Sequence record: PV295200.1
Direction: 5' to 3' (one strand)
Source: Escherichia phage vB_Eco_BCPEco_001
DNA length: 64,000 bases
The translations under genes and the position numbers were made by a program. Positions 22,473 through 34,967 of this stretch are shown piece after piece. The notes under the pieces are model-generated. The model did not search any database and was not told the origin of the DNA. It saw only the letters and a list, made by a program, of their open reading frames with translations. Position 1 is the first letter of the stretch. Each line of letters begins with the position of its first letter.

Positions 22473-22730
22473 ATGAAAACTTTCAAAGAGTTTGCTACAA
22501 AAACTACTATCACTGAATCTTCCCACGGTATGGAAGTAAAGCTTGGAATGGCTTTAGCTGAAGCTGAGCGTCTTTTCTCTCGTATTAAAGAACTTGCTGC
22601 TGCGGTCGATCCTTCATCTTTTAAAGGAGACCAAACTAAAGTTAAAGCACTTTTAGCATTATGCTCCGATGCAGGAGAAATTGCTAAAAATGGTTCTAAG
22701 ATGAAGAAACGATTAGAAGATTTAAAATAA
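22473..22730 (+). CDS. internal-protein-like protein with capsid-targeting-type N-terminus
   Basis: 85 aa; N-terminus MKTFKEFATKTTITE resembles the T4 internal protein leader MKTYQEFIAE cleaved after Glu. Confidence 0.5.
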   Translation: MKTFKEFATKTTITESSHGMEVKLGMALAEAERLFSRIKELAAAVDPSSFKGDQTKVKALLALCSDAGEIAKNGSKMKKRLEDLK

Positions 22731-22782: not shown

Positions 22783-22806
22783 AAACAAAACCAAATGGAA
22801 ATCAAA

Positions 22807-23040
22807 ATGAAAACTTTCAAAGAGTTTATCGCTGAAACTGCTGATGTAAAAGTTGAGTTTATTTACACTGGCAAGAAAGATAAAATGGGTGAAATGCCTC
22901 ATGGAGTTCTTCGTGATGCATTAGATAATTTCGGTCAACTCGCCGCAGAAGATTACGGTGATAAAATTGTTGTTACTGGTCCTGCTGCAGTTATTGAAAA
23001 ATGGGCAGCAGAAAATAAATCAATTTTTCGTAAAAAATAA
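22807..23040 (+). CDS. internal-protein-like protein with capsid-targeting-type N-terminus
   Basis: ATG at 22807 gives MKTFKEFIAETADV..., nearly identical to the T4 IP leader motif; 77 aa. Confidence 0.5.
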   Translation: MKTFKEFIAETADVKVEFIYTGKKDKMGEMPHGVLRDALDNFGQLAAEDYGDKIVVTGPAAVIEKWAAENKSIFRKK

Positions 23041-24682: not shown

Positions 24683-25348
24683 ATGTTCTATTACATTTAT
24701 AAAATAACAAATAAAATTAATAATAAAATCTATATAGGCGCTCATTCTACCGAAAATTTAGATGATGGATATATGGGTTCTGGTAAATTATTAAAAAGAG
24801 CCCAAGATAAGTATGGTATAGAAAATTTTTCTAAAGAAATATTAGAGTATTTTGACGATAAAACCTCTATGTTTGAGTCAGAAAAGAATATTGTGGCTGA
24901 AGAGTTTTTAAAGCGCCCTGATGTTTATAATTTGAAATTAGGTGGTGAAGGTGGTTGGGACCATTTAAACACTAAAGAATATTTGGATAAAAAGAAAGAA
25001 GCTTCCTTAAAAGGAGCTGCCGCTTTTAAAACCAGATTTGAGAACGACCCAGACCTTAAAGAAAAATATCGTAAAATGGGTTCAGAAAGGTTTAAACAGC
25101 TTTGGGATAATCCTAAGTATAGAGAGAAATTTTTAAATACTAAATCTTTCTTGGGTAAGACCCATACTCCTGAAACTATTAATAAAATGAAAGAATCTCA
25201 CGCCAGAAATAAACACCAACAAGGTGAAAAGAATTCCCAATTTGGTATGATGTGGATTCATTCATTAGATGAAAAAGTTTCTAAACGTATTAAGAAAACT
25301 GACCCAATTCCAGAAGGATGGTTTAAAGGTCGAAAAATGAAATTTTAA
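24683..25348 (+). CDS. segB: GIY-YIG homing endonuclease SegB
   Basis: 221 aa inside the tRNA cluster; N-terminal YYIYKITNKINNKIYIGAHS...DDGYMGSG module. Confidence 0.8.
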   Translation: MFYYIYKITNKINNKIYIGAHSTENLDDGYMGSGKLLKRAQDKYGIENFSKEILEYFDDKTSMFESEKNIVAEEFLKRPDVYNLKLGGEGGWDHLNTKEYLDKKKEASLKGAAAFKTRFENDPDLKEKYRKMGSERFKQLWDNPKYREKFLNTKSFLGKTHTPETINKMKESHARNKHQQGEKNSQFGMMWIHSLDEKVSKRIKKTDPIPEGWFKGRKMKF

Positions 25349-25351
25349 TTA

Positions 25352-25428
<77 letters not shown>

Positions 25429-25439
25429 AACAAGAAGCC

Positions 25440-25790
25440 GGGTCGCTACCGGCAAGTCGTCGGACTGATGTTCCCTGAGTAAGGACTGGCATTAATAAAT
25501 CTTTATGTTTTGTTAATGCCCCCTTATATCACAGCAGAAACGGCGCACCGAATTATCGATTCGAGGAAATATCTTTGCCGTAAGCCGAGTAGCGTTTTTG
25601 ACGGAACGTTCGGATATGGTCAAGATATGGCCTTTTAAAAATATTGAGTAGCGTCAACTGCTTAATAACCGGGTTCGAATCCCGGCGTTTCGTACAAACA
25701 CTTGCCTTAGCAGGTGGAACCCCGACAAGGTTGCCGCAAGGCTCAGTCCCGACCGAAAGGTTGGGGCTTTTTAGTATCTAGGCCTTTCCG
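25440..25790 (+). ncRNA. structured GC-rich non-coding region, probable stable small RNAs (T4 species 1/2, rnaC/rnaD position)
   Basis: No ORF over 60 aa; GC-rich versus flanks; tRNA-like T-arm ccgggttcgaatcccgg; ends with hairpin plus T-run (ggttggggcttttt); follows tRNA-Arg as in T4. Confidence 0.35.
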
Positions 25791-25894
25791 GGCCTCTCTA
25801 GGCATCATTTAGTTTATACCCTTTATAATATATTATCCTACCTTTTAATTGCCCCTCCTGACCCTAGAATTCCCTAAAACTTTTTAAAAATTTT

Positions 25895-25936
25895 TTCACA
25901 AAACTGTTTACAAGACTGTTCTTCTATGGTACTATA
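25895..25936 (+). promoter_or_regulatory. early promoter (repeat family B, copy 1)
   Basis: TTTTCACAAAACT-GTTTAC, 18 nt, TG-g-TACTAT; about 48 nt near-identical to copies at about 40,900 and 43,044. Confidence 0.6.
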
Positions 25937-25978
25937 CAACTATCAACTACTGATACAGAAAACAACTTGGAGAACGAA

Positions 25979-26242
25979 ATGGATAATTACGGCGAACTGT
26001 TCAACTTCTTTATGAAATGTGTTTCAGAAGATTTCGGTCGTACAGTGAATGATATTAAAGTTATCGGTCCTGACCATCCGATGTTTGAAACTTACGCAGT
26101 AATGGGGAATGAAGATGGTCAGTGGTATACTGTAAAGGTTGTGATTAACATGTTCACTGCTGAAAGTTATGTTAAACTGTCTTCTAAAGTTTACCATGAT
26201 AACGACGAAATCGCAGAAGAATATTTCAATAATATGAAATAA
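25979..26242 (+). CDS. hypothetical protein
   Basis: 87 aa from ATG at 25979 with GGAGAA RBS (track start 25967 is TTG); directly downstream of an early promoter. Confidence 0.5.
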   Translation: MDNYGELFNFFMKCVSEDFGRTVNDIKVIGPDHPMFETYAVMGNEDGQWYTVKVVINMFTAESYVKLSSKVYHDNDEIAEEYFNNMK

Positions 26243-26272
26243 GTTTACATAGGCTCATGATTGAGATATTAT
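26243..26272 (+). promoter_or_regulatory. early promoter in stem-loop (PeSL-type)
   Basis: GTTTAC, 18 nt, TATTAT; inverted repeat GGCTCAT...ATGAGCC encloses the -10. Confidence 0.55.
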
Positions 26273-26297
26273 GAGCCCATAATTTGAGGAGAACATT

Positions 26298-26633
26298 ATG
26301 AAACGTAACTTTAGTAAAGCTTTTTGTAATCGAAATTATTATCCTGAAGAGCTTTTTGAATCTAAGGAATTTAAAGAGTTTAACGAACGTTCTCAAAACA
26401 TGCCTGTACAATGGGTATTGGATTATGCTAACCGTATCTTTGAAGGCGTGCGGGATATTTGTCCTGATGATGAAGCTCCTTATTTTAAAAAGGCTTGGGA
26501 ACTTGCTAACCAAGCATATATCAATGCTTTAGAATCTTCTAAAGGCACTGACGATGATTTTACTTTATTGGCTATCAATGATGCCGTTATCGAGGCCATC
26601 GACGTCTTTATCGATGAGCTAGATGAAGAATAA
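26298..26633 (+). CDS. hypothetical acidic protein
   Basis: 111 aa ORF with GAGGAGAA RBS; no recognised motif. Confidence 0.5.
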   Translation: MKRNFSKAFCNRNYYPEELFESKEFKEFNERSQNMPVQWVLDYANRIFEGVRDICPDDEAPYFKKAWELANQAYINALESSKGTDDDFTLLAINDAVIEAIDVFIDELDEE

Positions 26634-26679
26634 GTTTACAATCTATTAAAATCTAATTGTATCAACCTAAGGAAATACT

Positions 26680-27273
26680 ATGAACACACTGAAGAAAATT
26701 GTTGAGTTTATTCGCACTAAACTTGGTTCTGCAATGGCTAAAAATCTATCTGTTGAAGAACAGTATACTGCTGCAGCAGCAAAACTGCTTGATAAAATTA
26801 AAGACCTAAAAACTGCTTCTGTTAAATCTATTAATGAAGAAAAACGTATTCGTGAACTTATTGTTGAAAAGAATAAGCAGGCCGAATCAAAAGAGCGTGA
26901 AATTCGCAAGCTTCTTTCTGAAGGTCAAGATGTAACAATGCATGCTAAACTCGGTTTACTATATCGTCGAACAGCTGAGCAGTTGACTACTAAAGCTGAT
27001 GGTTATGCTGAAATGCGAATTGAAATCGCCAAGAAAGTAGTTGAGTTAGATGATGCTCGCCAAGAACTTGCAGTTAAATTGGAATATATCCGTGAAACTC
27101 GTGCTGCGAATGCCCTTGGAATTAGTACTGCTGATGATGTAGTTGAAATTGCAGCACTGACTAAAGTTGATATTGAAGATACTCTCGCCCGAGTTGAAAC
27201 CTTTAATGGCAATATTTCTGGGGTTGAAACTACCTCTGCCGATGTTCAGGAATATATTAATTCTCTGAAATAA
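26680..27273 (+). CDS. coiled-coil protein (possibly PspA/IM30-like architecture)
   Basis: 197 aa, almost entirely heptad-like charged helices; followed by a terminator hairpin; similarity to PspA is impression only. Confidence 0.45.
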
Positions 27274-27278
27274 TGATA

Positions 27279-27300
27279 AGGGGCTTCGGCCCCTATTACT
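27279..27300 (+). terminator. terminator-like hairpin with UUCG loop
   Basis: AGGGGC-ttcg-GCCCCT followed by a weak T-rich tract. Confidence 0.45.
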
Positions 27301-27314
27301 TGGAGTAAGTAGGA

Positions 27315-27923
27315 ATGAAAATGCAAAGTGATTTCAATTCAATGTTTGAAGAGTTCCAAAGGCAGGTTGATGTTCCAGACCAATTGCTAAATGCTCTTAA
27401 ACGTATGGCAGAAGGACGTAATTATTATTGGGGTTCTTCATATGAAACTGATGAAAGTCTTTCTGGAAGATTTTCCAGAGGTAAAAAGTCTTTAATACGT
27501 CCTGGAATACTTATTAACAGTATTGAATCAATTTATTCATTGACATGCGATTTTGATGTTGAATTTACTGATTTCATTTCTCCTGAATGGACAGTTTGTT
27601 ATTTAAACGACGATTTTGATTATCTCGGTGTTTATAGTTTAAGTGACGCATGGTTTAAACGTAACTTACAAAAGTCAAATTTATTCTATATTGATACTAC
27701 AGTAAAATTTCAGGGAAAGAAATATTTCTTTACTCTTATAGTTGATTCTGAAACGAAGCATGAAAATAAACGTATTCTTAGTAAAAAGAATATCTTAACT
27801 ATTGTTGATGATCTTTTTGATAAATTCGTGGAAAATCCCAGTTTTGAAAGCGATTTATTACTAGAAAAATTTGTGAAGGAATGCAGAGAATATGTCAAAG
27901 CCATCAATGTATCTTCCAAGTAA
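27315..27923 (+). CDS. hypothetical protein; C-terminus shares FVKECR motif with the downstream membrane paralogs
   Basis: 202 aa; ends LLLEKFVKECREYVKAINVSSK. Confidence 0.5.
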   Translation: MKMQSDFNSMFEEFQRQVDVPDQLLNALKRMAEGRNYYWGSSYETDESLSGRFSRGKKSLIRPGILINSIESIYSLTCDFDVEFTDFISPEWTVCYLNDDFDYLGVYSLSDAWFKRNLQKSNLFYIDTTVKFQGKKYFFTLIVDSETKHENKRILSKKNILTIVDDLFDKFVENPSFESDLLLEKFVKECREYVKAINVSSK

Positions 27924-28284
27924 ACCGTTGAAGTATGAATTAAAGCGCCAGCTAATTTCTACTGATGTATTAATAGGTCCTGTGGTAGCTGTATCATTTG
28001 TAATTCTACTGGGGGTTGGAATAATTATAGATGTTATGACTAATATTGAATCTAATGTAATATTTGCGTCAACACTAATTCTTCCAATGATAGTTCCATT
28101 TTTATTAGTACCTGTAAATTGGATAGGATACTGGTATCAAGGAAGGCATTATCGTAAACGCGTACGTGATTGGAAAGCACAGTGTAAAAAGATTAAAAAG
28201 GAACATCAGCTTAAACTTGCTGCGTATGAATTTGATGAAATTATGAAATTTGTTAAGGAATCACGATGCAAAAGCCAAAACTAA
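27892..28284 (+). CDS. two-TM membrane protein, paralog family member 1
   Basis: 130 aa; two hydrophobic helices, basic tail ending FVKESRCKSQN. Confidence 0.5.
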   Translation: MSKPSMYLPSKPLKYELKRQLISTDVLIGPVVAVSFVILLGVGIIIDVMTNIESNVIFASTLILPMIVPFLLVPVNWIGYWYQGRHYRKRVRDWKAQCKKIKKEHQLKLAAYEFDEIMKFVKESRCKSQN

Positions 28285-28628
28285 ATAAAGTCAAATATTC
28301 GCTTCCTGAGTCATTTTTAATTTTTGCTGTGGCGTTGGCTGCAGCTCTTGCGGGTAGTCTTTTTGGATTGTTAATTGACTGTCTTATTTTAAACATTGAC
28401 GGCACAGTAAATATAATAGAAGTTTGGAGTGAACTTTGTTATACTAAAATTATTTCATTATTTTCATTCTTTGGTACCATGTTATATTTTCATTATGATA
28501 ATTTTAAAATAAATTGGCAAAGAAAAAAAGATTACAAAATACAATTAAAAGAATATAATAGCTACATGTCTTATATTGAAAATGAGTCAATGAAAGAGTT
28601 TGTGAGTGATTGTAGGAAAATTAAATGA
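28266..28628 (+). CDS. two-TM membrane protein, paralog family member 2
   Basis: 120 aa; two hydrophobic helices, tail ending EFVSDCRKIK; ATGA overlap with the next gene. Confidence 0.5.
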   Translation: MQKPKLNKVKYSLPESFLIFAVALAAALAGSLFGLLIDCLILNIDGTVNIIEVWSELCYTKIISLFSFFGTMLYFHYDNFKINWQRKKDYKIQLKEYNSYMSYIENESMKEFVSDCRKIK

Positions 28629-29113
28629 TTTTAAAAACTCGCTGGTATGATTTAGATGATGGGGATGATGGCATTTCAGTTGATAGAGTTGACTGGAATG
28701 GTTGTTCCGAAGATATGAAAAATTTGTTGATTAGGGAGTTTAGAATGGGATATCAAGCAGCTAAGCCATTTACTGTAACAGATGATAAGTTCGTATGTAT
28801 TCAAAACGGTCGCGCTAAGTTAACGAACGCTGATTGGTTCACAGATAAAATTATGATTCTGTGGTATATTATTAGTCTTCCTGTGACATCATTCGTATTT
28901 TACTTTTTTATAAAAAATCCAATGGACAGAATAGGAGATTGGATTCTTTTAACCATACTTGTTAATATTTTTACAGCAGCAATATTATCTGGGATATGGT
29001 ACACGTTCATTGAAATGCCATGGCGGCTACGCAGACAACAAAAGATTTTTGATGAAAAGAAATACGTTCAAAATTTAAATAACTTTATCACTGAATGCAG
29101 GAAATTAAAATGA
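28625..29113 (+). CDS. two-TM membrane protein, paralog family member 3
   Basis: 162 aa; two hydrophobic helices, tail ending FITECRKLK; ATGA overlap with nudE. Confidence 0.5.
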   Translation: MILKTRWYDLDDGDDGISVDRVDWNGCSEDMKNLLIREFRMGYQAAKPFTVTDDKFVCIQNGRAKLTNADWFTDKIMILWYIISLPVTSFVFYFFIKNPMDRIGDWILLTILVNIFTAAILSGIWYTFIEMPWRLRRQQKIFDEKKYVQNLNNFITECRKLK

Positions 29114-29550
29114 AAACACTATCAGCTGGTATTATCTTTATGACAGAAGATAGAGATTTATTTATGGGTCGGGTTACTGGTTCTCGTAAGCCTGGAATGA
29201 TGGCACATCGCTGGGATATTCCAAAGGGCCGCGTAGAAAATTCTGATTTGAATGCACTGGAAGCTGCAAAAAGAGAATGCTTAGAAGAGACTGGCTTTAG
29301 CAATTATAATCCAGACCTTCTAGAAGACCTAGGTGTATTTAAATATTCTAGTAATAAAGACTTACAGTTATTTTATTATACGATTCCAGTAGAGCATGAG
29401 ATGTTTAGAAATTGTCGTTGCGAGTCTTATTTTGAAAATAAAGATGGTGTTATGATTCCAGAGATGGATGCTTTTGCTCTTATTCCTCGTATTCAGTGGC
29501 AATATGTGATGGGTCCTTCACTTTACCGAATAATGAACAACCTCTTTTAA
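29110..29550 (+). CDS. nudE: Nudix hydrolase NudE
   Basis: Nudix box GRVENSDLNALEAAKRECLEETG; ATG at 29110 overlaps upstream stop (alternative start 29095); immediately upstream of lysozyme e as in T4. Confidence 0.75.
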   Translation: MKTLSAGIIFMTEDRDLFMGRVTGSRKPGMMAHRWDIPKGRVENSDLNALEAAKRECLEETGFSNYNPDLLEDLGVFKYSSNKDLQLFYYTIPVEHEMFRNCRCESYFENKDGVMIPEMDAFALIPRIQWQYVMGPSLYRIMNNLF

Positions 29551-30081
<531 letters not shown>

Positions 30082-30140: not shown

Positions 30141-30557
30141 ATGACTCGTATTAATTTGACTTTAGTATCTGAACTTGCTGATCAACATTTAATCGCAGAA
30201 TACCGTGAATTGCCGCGTGTTTTTGGTATAGTTCGTAAGCATGTGGCAAACGGTAAGCGCGTTAAAGATTTTAAAATATCTTCTAAATTTATTTTAGGTT
30301 CTGGTCATGTTACTTTCTTTTACGATAAGTTAGAATTTTTGCGAAAGCGTCAATCGGACATTATAACGGAATGCTTAAAACGCGGGTTCAGTATAAAAGA
30401 TACTGAAGTTCCTGACATCAGCGATATTCCAGCAGAATGGAAAAATGATTATAACCCATGCAAATCGGCTATTAAATTGAGTCAACAACGACTCGATGAA
30501 AAAATTTTAATGAAGCCACACTGGTATAAATACTACGGCAAAAATATTTACATTTAA
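30141..30557 (+). CDS. denV: endonuclease V (pyrimidine dimer DNA glycosylase)
   Basis: 138 aa; [29 protein letters not shown]... recognisably T4 DenV with scattered substitutions. Confidence 0.85.
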
Positions 30558-34580: not shown

Positions 34581-34764
34581 TCCTAAAAACAAAGTGGAAA
34601 TTATTCGTCAATGGGAACGCATTTGCCGTACTAAATGCCCAATTAATAGTCCACATGATGTAGATAAAGACTATATTGGAACATTCGTTGAATATACCTT
34701 TATTGATAGGAAAGGTCGTAAACAACATGTAGAAGAATATTGTTTAAAGGTTACATGGTTATGA
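34552..34764 (+). CDS. hypothetical protein
   Basis: 70 aa ORF overlapping the macro-domain gene end. Confidence 0.35.
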   Translation: MKVHYPHPFDPKNKVEIIRQWERICRTKCPINSPHDVDKDYIGTFVEYTFIDRKGRKQHVEEYCLKVTWL

Positions 34765-34967
34765 GCCAAACTAGTATTCTTAAAAATGCCCACTGCGAAA
34801 AGTGTGAATGGCCAGTTGTTTTTGCTTTATGTAATGATGAAATGGCTTGTGATTTCGATTATTGGTGCTATTGTTCTAATAAAGGATGCATCAATCATAA
34901 AGGTGAAGGATTTTATTCAGGATTTTATCCTTATCCTGATTTCGTTAAAGAAGGTAAACCGAAATGA
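34761..34967 (+). CDS. cysteine-rich small protein (possible zinc binding)
   Basis: 68 aa from ATG at 34761 (ATGA overlap); nine Cys including CEKCEW and CYCSNKGC. Confidence 0.4.
   Translation: MSQTSILKNAHCEKCEWPVVFALCNDEMACDFDYWCYCSNKGCINHKGEGFYSGFYPYPDFVKEGKPK

Follow-up and report, generated by a model that had tools for sequence, protein, structure and literature searches.

Four consecutive small genes of Escherichia phage vB_Eco_BCPEco_001 (sequence record PV295200.1) are the subject of this analysis. They lie on the + strand at positions 27315-29113 of a stretch of 64,000 nucleotides (nt), which we call the window and whose numbering is used throughout, and they correspond to the T4 genes e.5, e.4, e.3 and e.2. 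Our profile comparisons support the conclusion that e.4, e.3 and the membrane half of e.2 are paralogs, and that e.5 shares only their C-terminal tail. We propose that the tandem paralogs would be membrane hairpins which, together with e.5, carry a common docking tail, and that their gene junctions would be both coding and recombining. To this explanation as a whole we assign a probability of about 0.6.

Shigella phage SHFML-11 shares 99.9% identity with the 3-kb region, which matches 642 phage records, nearly all of Tequatrovirus, the genus to which the window belongs. Gene names are taken from the RB14 and T4 annotations, and the array lies upstream of nudE and of the lysozyme gene e; in the original GenBank entry L13089 the genes are named msp3 to msp8, e.6 being msp3 and nudE msp8. 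The four open reading frames (ORFs) are orthologs of T4 genes, with 93-97% identity to many Tequatrovirus copies, and as genes they are already known. Their lengths of 202, 130, 120 and 162 amino acids (aa) and their C-termini are as an earlier note, written from the sequence alone, had described them. The 202-aa e.5 product (msp4, 27315-27923, +) is soluble and carries the shared tail (PHROG 2607, E 5.3e-108; Pfam PF26876, precomputed on homologs). The next two genes encode predicted hairpin membrane proteins: e.4 (msp5, 27892-28284, +, 130 aa) matches PHROG 2604 over residues 1-130 of 130 (E 3.2e-69) and, in its close homologs, PF26873, and e.3 (msp6, 28266-28628, +, 120 aa) matches PHROG 2330 (E 7.6e-60) and is 97% identical to the e.3 protein of phage PP01. 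Finally, e.2 (msp7, 28625-29113, +, 162 aa) matches PHROG 2203 over residues 1-160 (E 2.1e-78). None of these four PHROGs, all full-length matches, has an assigned function.

The earlier note had called the three membrane proteins paralogous. Since single-sequence alignments were unconvincing, we built profiles from small ortholog alignments of Tequatro-, Mosig-, Gapriver- and Dhakavirus loci and compared them by hhalign. e.4 and e.3 align end to end over 114 columns (probability 85.6%, P 5.6e-6), and e.3 and e.2 over 85 columns that include both transmembrane (TM) helices and the tail (85.5%, P 5.8e-6), in agreement with the note. Moreover, e.3 aligns over 46 columns with a 101-aa Mosigvirus two-TM protein resembling RB69 ORF133c (86.6%, P 4.4e-6). 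Reversed controls reached at most 6%, and less than 5% for the e.4/e.3 and e.3/e.2 pairs. The direct comparison of e.4 with e.2 was not significant, and alignments of e.5 with the others are confined to its last 7-16 residues. A weak full-length match links e.3 to the e.4 family PHROG 2604 (E 0.024). A word-indexed homolog search with e.3 returned Tequatrovirus copies only, at 67% identity or more, and the profile search was dominated by close copies of e.3 and e.4. An exhaustive search of 1.84 billion representatives with a profile hidden Markov model gave only 10 matches at E <=1e-3, all from T4-like phages; the detectable family is thus restricted to these.

Two observations concern the annotation of these genes elsewhere. 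Some NCBI records label e.3 and e.4 homologs 'sulfurtransferase', 'DNA primase' or 'TerC' (clusters P0008, P0011, P0017, P0049 and others); these look like propagated annotation errors, without support in any family scan. Compared with window positions 28900-28990, e.2 of the T4 reference NC_000866 lacks one nucleotide and, about 95 nt away, has one extra. Because of this paired -1/+1 frameshift the reference e.2 is annotated as a truncated gene of 102 aa, followed by an unannotated gap of 161 nt before nudE. The pair is either a lesion of the laboratory strain or a sequencing error of the 1990s.

Two hydrophobic helices had been claimed for each membrane protein. In Kyte-Doolittle plots this is clear for e.4 and e.2, which have two strongly hydrophobic segments each, but for e.3 it holds fully only for TM1 (approximately aa 16-42), TM2 being weaker (approximately aa 57-77, mean 1.37 over 19 residues). 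The helices of e.4 lie at approximately aa 24-49 and 54-80. e.2 starts with an acidic N-terminal domain of 75 aa, followed by the two-TM-plus-tail module (TM at approximately aa 77-96 and 106-128), and hydropathy reveals no hydrophobic segment in e.5. The AlphaFold2 model of e.4, built from a 17-sequence alignment, has a predicted local distance difference test (pLDDT) score of 70 and helices at 24-49, 54-108 and 111-129, with the tail motif in the last one. For e.5 the quality of the model is low (pLDDT 54); the tail falls within a helix at 180-196. The ratio of Lys plus Arg to Asp plus Glu is 5:1 in the N-terminal and 15:6 in the C-terminal part of e.4, and 4:1 and 10:7 in e.3, and the loops of both proteins, 9-16 residues long, contain no Lys or Arg at all. 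By the positive-inside rule both ends are therefore predicted to be cytoplasmic. This agrees with AlphaFold2 and implies, as far as such predictions go, an N-in/C-in hairpin for e.4 and e.3. Within Tequatrovirus, columns that are at least 95% invariant make up 73-85% of the predicted cytoplasmic parts of e.4 and e.3 versus 31-61% of the TM helices and loops. The e.4 segment TM1-loop-TM2 (window 27990-28240) is only 80-90% identical in 316 of the 402 matching Tequatrovirus genomes and the tail is nearly invariant; the membrane part of e.4 is either diversifying or relaxed.

The shared tail stands out from the background of the window. The strict motif F[IV]x[ED]C[RK] has three matches in the six reading frames of the 64 kb, compared with 0.18 in shuffled sequence, and each is found 3-11 residues before a stop codon, that of e.5, e.3 and e.2, respectively. 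In full, the C-termini read FVKECREYV... in e.5 (motif FVKECR at 27870-27887, +, 4 nt upstream of the e.4 start codon), FVKESRCKSQN in e.4 (variant FVKESRC at 28249-28269, +, its R-C codons containing the e.3 start codon), EFVSDCRKIK in e.3 (FVSDCR at 28599-28616, +) and FITECRKLK in e.2 (FITECR at 29084-29101, +). The motif accompanies two of the 14 ATGA stop/start overlaps on the + strand, e.3/e.2 and e.2/nudE. We aligned 20 tails from nine genera, anchored on the Phe (position 0). Positions -3, 0, +1 and +4 are hydrophobic in 85-100% of them, with charged residues between; position +4 is Cys in 14, Val in three and Ile, Met or Ser in one each, and position +5 is Arg in 18 and Lys in two. 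The resulting i, i+3, i+4, i+7 spacing points to an amphipathic helix with the Cys on its hydrophobic face.

Orthologs retain the tail as peptide while its codons and its place relative to the next gene change. At the e.5 tail we find FIMECR in Mosigvirus, FI[KAT]ECR in Gapriver- and Dhakavirus, FIKYCR in Jiaodavirus and FIKHCR in Marfavirus, and at the e.4 tail FVKEIRC in Mosigvirus, FIKEVR in Gaprivervirus and FVKEVR in Jiaodavirus. Phe is encoded by TTT or TTC, Cys by TGC or TGT, and Arg by AGA, AGG, CGA, CGT or CGC. In Gapriver- and Dhakavirus the e.5 motif lies 22 nt 5' of the next start and a separate AAAGAGG serves as Shine-Dalgarno, and in Karamvirus the motifs lie about 15 codons before the stop, away from gene overlaps. 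Judged from this synonymous codon drift and from the motifs set apart from ribosome-binding sites, the tail is conserved at the protein level. The relaxed pattern F[IV]xxCR occurs downstream of e.6 with 1-5 matches per 6-10 kb locus, compared with 0.0-0.35 expected, in nine genera (Tequatro-, Mosig-, Gapriver-, Dhaka-, Jiaoda-, Karam-, Roskilde-, Marfa- and Biquartavirus). Almost all of these matches are at most 20 residues from the stop of a real ORF, in soluble as well as membrane proteins. The e.5-position proteins of Tequatro-/Mosig-, Marfa- and Jiaodavirus show full-length homology (probability 90-97%), whereas between Tequatro-/Mosigvirus and Gapriver-/Dhakavirus the alignment is limited to the last 20 columns (probability 87%). 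Since the bodies can barely be aligned while the last 20 columns do align, the tail is the most durable part of these fast-evolving proteins.

Beyond the immediate array, soluble proteins of 94-102 aa also carry the tail in Jiaodavirus JD18 (locus L024, 4666-4974, DMFIAKCRAK) and Marfavirus R3_1 (locus L029, 6166-6450, NRFIKYCRGKHVS), and the motif is thus not confined to the membrane paralogs. Elsewhere in the window, at 34755-34967, a Cys-rich 70-aa ORF that overlaps the next one by ATGA ends in ...YPDFVKEGKPK. It has the F-V-K-E but no C-R, and the resemblance is probably due to chance.

The repeated junction strings of the earlier note were recovered: tgtaggaaaattaaATGA at 28611-28628 (+) comprises the end of e.3, a Shine-Dalgarno and the e.2 start, and tgcaggaaattaaaATGA at 29096-29113 (+) the end of e.2, a Shine-Dalgarno and the nudE start. 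The e.5/e.4 junction is likewise similar to the e.4/e.3 junction (TTTGTGAAGGAATGCAGAGAATATGTCAAAGCCA versus TTTGTTAAGGAATCACGATGCAAAAGCCA). Consecutive genes overlap by 32 nt (e.5/e.4), 19 nt (e.4/e.3), 4 nt (e.3/e.2) and 4 nt (e.2/nudE), so that the tails, as the note had observed, overlap the translation-initiation regions of the next genes. In Tequatrovirus the likely Shine-Dalgarno of the following gene is provided by the motif itself, as AAGGAA (K-E) or AGGAAA (R-K). Nucleotide identity between genera peaks at the junctions, at about 0.8 compared with about 0.55 in the gene bodies. nudE (msp8, 29110-29550, +), a Nudix hydrolase according to Pfam (NUDIX, E 5e-13) and the T4 annotation, closes the overlapping chain, and most likely starts at 29110, in the ATGA overlap, and not at the upstream ATG at 29095. 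No late promoter (TATAAATA) is found within 25000-29552, and two precede e. Sigma-70-like sites lie 5' of e.8 and e.7, in line with L13089, which places promoters only before msp1-3 and a stem-loop after msp3. As read from the sequence, e.5-e.4-e.3-e.2-nudE is one overlapping chain, which is probably pre-late and translationally coupled.

Related genomes lend weight to the earlier note's idea of cassette recombination at the junctions: cassettes are lost in or near the repeats, and related phages differ in copy number, which ranges from 1 to 3 or more. In T4_ev240 and in an IMG/VR contig e.2 is missing through a deletion that spans the interval between the junction repeats of e.3 and e.2 (tgtaggaaaattaaATGA being its left partner in T4_ev240 and locus L008, and tgcaggaaattaaaATGA the right one), which leaves a chimeric e.3 tail ending in ...CRKLK. 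Such CRKLK tails are present on several e.3 backgrounds. Of the records in the phage collection, 498 contain the e.3 interior but only 447 the e.2 interior, and hence approximately 10% are without e.2; a megablast count of the e.4 interior (402 records) is unusable for presence or absence, because in most genomes its TM region reaches only 80-90% identity. We read the absence of e.2 within Tequatrovirus as loss, because Mosigvirus has an e.2 ortholog. In Mosigvirus approximately 3.4 kb of other genes are inserted between the e.3 tail junction and e.2, whose ortholog lies approximately 3.5 kb further downstream. Gapriverviruses contain e.5-e.4-e.3, and several Dhakavirus loci are without e.4. 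A chimeric e.5 tail (...EYAKEVQNGTA) is seen in three e.4-less Dhakavirus loci, with the crossover in AA(A/G)GAGGTTC..AATG.

Other rearrangements fall within the genes. UFV05, UFV09 and UFV11 encode a 106-aa in-frame hybrid, in which the N-terminus of e.4 is joined to e.2 within TM1 at a CCTGTG microhomology, which is consistent with a common architecture of e.4 and e.2. A single 2-kb ENA contig contains an e.4 of 69 aa that has lost both TM helices and is still in frame. In the Mosigviruses moha and phiE142 an internal deletion of e.3 has left a 25-codon tail ORF; in the moha remnant, the one that was read, the chain of stop/start overlaps is unbroken. Four of five deletions are in frame, compared with one third expected by chance (binomial P ~0.05), which is only a hint of selection to keep translation into the tail and the next start. 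Together, the sequences support the view that cassettes are lost by recombination in or near the repeated junctions.

These observations can be combined as follows. e.4, e.3 and the C-terminal half of e.2 would be tandem paralogs that form small inner-membrane hairpins with both ends in the cytoplasm. A K/R-rich cytoplasmic extension would end in an amphipathic helix of the form hydrophobic-x-x-F-[IV]-K-E-[C/V/I]-R, and soluble e.5 would carry the same helix. The tail codons would double as the ribosome-binding region of the next gene in a coupled pre-late chain, which would explain why the junction DNA is repeated and strongly conserved. Recombination at the junction repeats and at other microhomologies between paralogs would add or remove cassettes while keeping frame, tail and coupling. 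From its conservation, amphipathicity and co-occurrence, the tail may be a cytoplasmic helix for protein-protein docking, by which e.5 and the variable membrane anchors might bind each other or a common partner at the inner membrane. The whole would then be a dispensable, host-directed accessory module.

Several points weigh against this explanation. Single-sequence Smith-Waterman alignments with local shuffles are not significant, except marginally for the e.3 and e.2 tails, and the paralogy depends on profiles of few, related sequences. The docking role is read solely from conservation and amphipathicity, coupling is deduced from gene overlaps, and the direction, loss or gain, of each presence/absence difference is likewise deduced. 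The AlphaFold2 models are of only low to moderate confidence (pLDDT 54 and 70). Finally, e.4 has Ser, Ile or Val in place of the Cys, and a Cys displaced by two residues; a Cys at this position is thus no strict requirement.

Searches of Pfam, PHROGs, NCBIfam, PDB sequences and a viral structure library yielded no characterised family for e.5, e.4, e.3 or e.2. Foldseek searches of viral models with the e.5 model retrieved only uncharacterised e.5-position proteins of other T4-like phages, and the search of PDB sequences with e.2 gave nothing meaningful. Other readings were weighed against the same data. The common C-terminus might be a by-product of nucleotide constraint, with in-frame Shine-Dalgarno sequences and spacers for coupling happening to encode K-E and R-K. 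AAGGAA and AGGAAA are indeed the likely Shine-Dalgarno sequences of e.3, e.2 and nudE, and the motif of Tequatro- and Mosigvirus is always 0-8 nt 5' of the following start codon, including the motif of e.5, whose stop comes 11 codons later. We nevertheless find this improbable. A Shine-Dalgarno does not account for F, [IV], C and R; five Arg codons and two Cys codons are in use; the other 12 ATGA junctions of the window are without the motif; and the Gapriver-/Dhakavirus e.5 motif, 22 nt from the start with an AAAGAGG of its own, as well as the Karamvirus motifs outside gene overlaps, are set apart from initiation sites. The synonymous drift, this separation in Gapriver-, Dhaka- and Karamviruses, where 15-22 nt or about 15 codons lie between motif and next start, and the soluble carriers speak against the motif being no more than a by-product of the junction or the ribosome-binding site. 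That the tails are inert remnants of duplication and deletion, with the e.5 tail left over from a lost membrane paralog, we consider very improbable. The 25-codon tail ORF of moha and the in-frame hybrids would fit, but across genera no part of the e.5-position proteins is better conserved than the tail (last 20 columns, probability 87%), and the tail changes that are seen are synonymous.

Doubtful, though conceivable, is a portable signal for processing, targeting or degradation, such as an (L/I)-x-E site of the prohead protease or a basic C-terminal degron by which a host AAA+ protease would time the removal of early proteins. The hydrophobic-x-x-F-[IV]-x-E pattern fits the N-termini of internal proteins that the window also encodes (MKTFKEFIAE at 22807), the last residues of the tails are K/R-rich, and the motif occurs on otherwise unrelated soluble and membrane proteins. 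All four tails contain [IV]-x-[ED], a short pattern whose context differs from that of gp21-processed proteins. Early inner-membrane proteins are, however, improbable substrates for a protease that acts inside proheads, and Val at +1 is not the classical residue. A related, and just as doubtful, idea is that the FIxECR tail is a portable C-terminal address tag, which steers a changing set of early soluble and membrane proteins to one partner or processing enzyme. It would be the counterpart of the N-terminal capsid-targeting sequence of internal proteins, and new accessory genes could join the pathway by recombining at a junction that encodes the tail. The earlier note had thought of immunity and superinfection exclusion, and factors of the Imm/Sp kind or other membrane effectors of defence or counter-defence would be small, probably early, apparently dispensable and variable inner-membrane proteins in a hyperplastic region, as these are; copy number and TM sequences also differ between close relatives, and e.4 has a very weak match to the Bfi1 family immunity protein (E 1e-3, 19 bits versus a cut-off of 100). 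We regard this as decidedly doubtful, given predicted periplasmic loops of just 9-16 residues, conserved parts that are predicted to be cytoplasmic, and no match to an Imm, Sp or exclusion family in Pfam, PHROG or NCBIfam at E up to 1. Family scans thus lend no support to a kinship with T4 Imm or Sp. The imm and sp genes lie elsewhere on the T4 map, and the note's remark on genomic position therefore looks mistaken. A role as holin-like lysis proteins, finally, is barely credible. Class II holins likewise have two N-in/C-in TM helices and charged tails, and the array lies upstream of the endolysin gene e; but no late promoter precedes the array, while e has two, and no PHROG holin was matched. 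The T4 holin is gene t, elsewhere in the genome. Tandem hairpin paralogs with a docking tail and recombining junctions remain our preferred explanation.

As far as we have checked, three things are new: the paralogy of e.4, e.3 and e.2, the extension of the tail to e.5 and to nine genera, and cassette gain and loss linked to the junctions. In the annotations and in the literature that we searched on these T4 gene names and early-gene screens we found no paper on the genes and no record of the paralogy, the tail or the junction link. The result is modest yet genuine, at the level of a family, in a well-studied phage. Among large lytic phages none has been studied as thoroughly as T4, and still about half of its genes lack a known function. 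In this locus one shared, selectable peptide would join four 'hypothetical' genes, together with their counterparts in nine or more genera, into a single module, which offers a handle for experiments. The locus would also be a natural case of dual-coding gene junctions that act as translational couplers and as recombination sites, and this dual role would explain why copy number is polymorphic in this hyperplastic region and why in-frame hybrid genes occur there.

In the surroundings of the array, e.6 (msp3, 26680-27273, +, 197 aa), which roughly 1,100 phage genomes contain, lies 5' of the array in every genus examined, always directly before the e.5 position, and with 51-88% identity across eight genera is unusually conserved for the region. 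Some pipelines call it 'host specificity protein', with no visible basis. The idea that e.6 is PspA-like, and the array psp-operon-like, was rejected at the level of sequence: a profile of eight e.6 orthologs had no relevant match in Pfam or PDB sequences (PspA_IM30, PspA/Vipp1). Between e.6 and e.5, at 27279-27294 (+), we find a GGGGC-UUCG-GCCCC hairpin, both by sequence scan and as a stem_loop in L13089. It has a perfect tetraloop and a weak T-tract on the + strand, and its role may be that of an attenuating terminator or of an RNA-stability element, setting e.6 apart from the coupled chain. Downstream of nudE, according to the RB14/T4 annotation, the lysozyme gene e starts at 29587 and denV at 30141. 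An e.3- or e.4-like gene is followed, in Mosig-, Gapriver-, Dhaka-, Marfa- and Karamvirus, by a second tandem array, which consists of 3-6 small soluble paralogs of 65-100 aa (L006 6450-7244; L013 6862-8112; L029 5067-6117 and 6440-6637; L027 4799-5325). Their C-termini follow the pattern ...G-x-W-[VFY]-S-S-S-x-x-C-stop, as in GAWVSSSALC, GGWVASSHTC and QGWVSSSYSC. The 64-kb window contains no ORF of this type.

How does the array compare with known systems? Short repeats at gene boundaries are known from the hyperplastic regions of T4-type phages, where PeSL shuffling uses them as recombination sites for the gain and loss of non-essential genes (PMC2839356, PMC4122927). PeSLs are intergenic units of a sigma-70-like promoter and a terminator stem-loop (PMC2839356). 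The repeats of the array likewise lie at gene boundaries and are linked to gene gain and loss, but they are coding, the last codons of one gene overlapping the ribosome-binding site and start codon of the next. We found no promoter or terminator at the array junctions; the genes overlap by 4-32 nt and the sole hairpin is the one between e.6 and e.5. The mechanism proposed here would thus complement the intergenic PeSL mechanism of T4-type phages. In classical work on the T4 rII and e regions, deletions reportedly form between short direct repeats. Microhomologies of 6-12 nt similarly form the endpoints of the deletion of e.2 (TGCAGGAAA-type repeat) and of the hybrid in the UFV phages (CCTGTG), but the array repeats stem from paralogy and dual coding, and the products therefore remain in frame with a functional-looking tail.

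With class II holins the membrane proteins of the array share two TM helices, a predicted N-in/C-in topology and a charged C-terminus, features that are generic rather than specific, whereas neither a late promoter nor a PHROG holin match was found for the array. T4 Imm and Sp are also small early inner-membrane proteins of T-even phages; they differ in that no sequence relationship was detected and that the conserved surfaces of the array are predicted to be cytoplasmic. The capsid-targeting sequence MKTYQEFIAE of T4 internal proteins is N-terminal, is cleaved and acts in proheads. It is likewise a short portable peptide (...EFIAE...) that otherwise unrelated accessory proteins of neighbouring genes have in common, and its hydrophobic-x-x-F-I-x-E pattern is similar; the array motif differs in being C-terminal, in being followed by C-R and in occurring on membrane proteins. 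At 22473-22730 and 22795-23040 the window itself contains internal-protein-like ORFs that start MKTFKEFATK... and (MEIK)MKTFKEFIAE.... We take these starts to be the capsid-targeting pattern, its hydrophobic-x-x-F-I-x-E spacing being the same as in the C-terminal tail. Finally, databases list e.2 to e.5 as four unrelated 'hypothetical' or 'predicted membrane' families, whereas in our comparisons e.4, e.3 and e.2 emerge as relatives.

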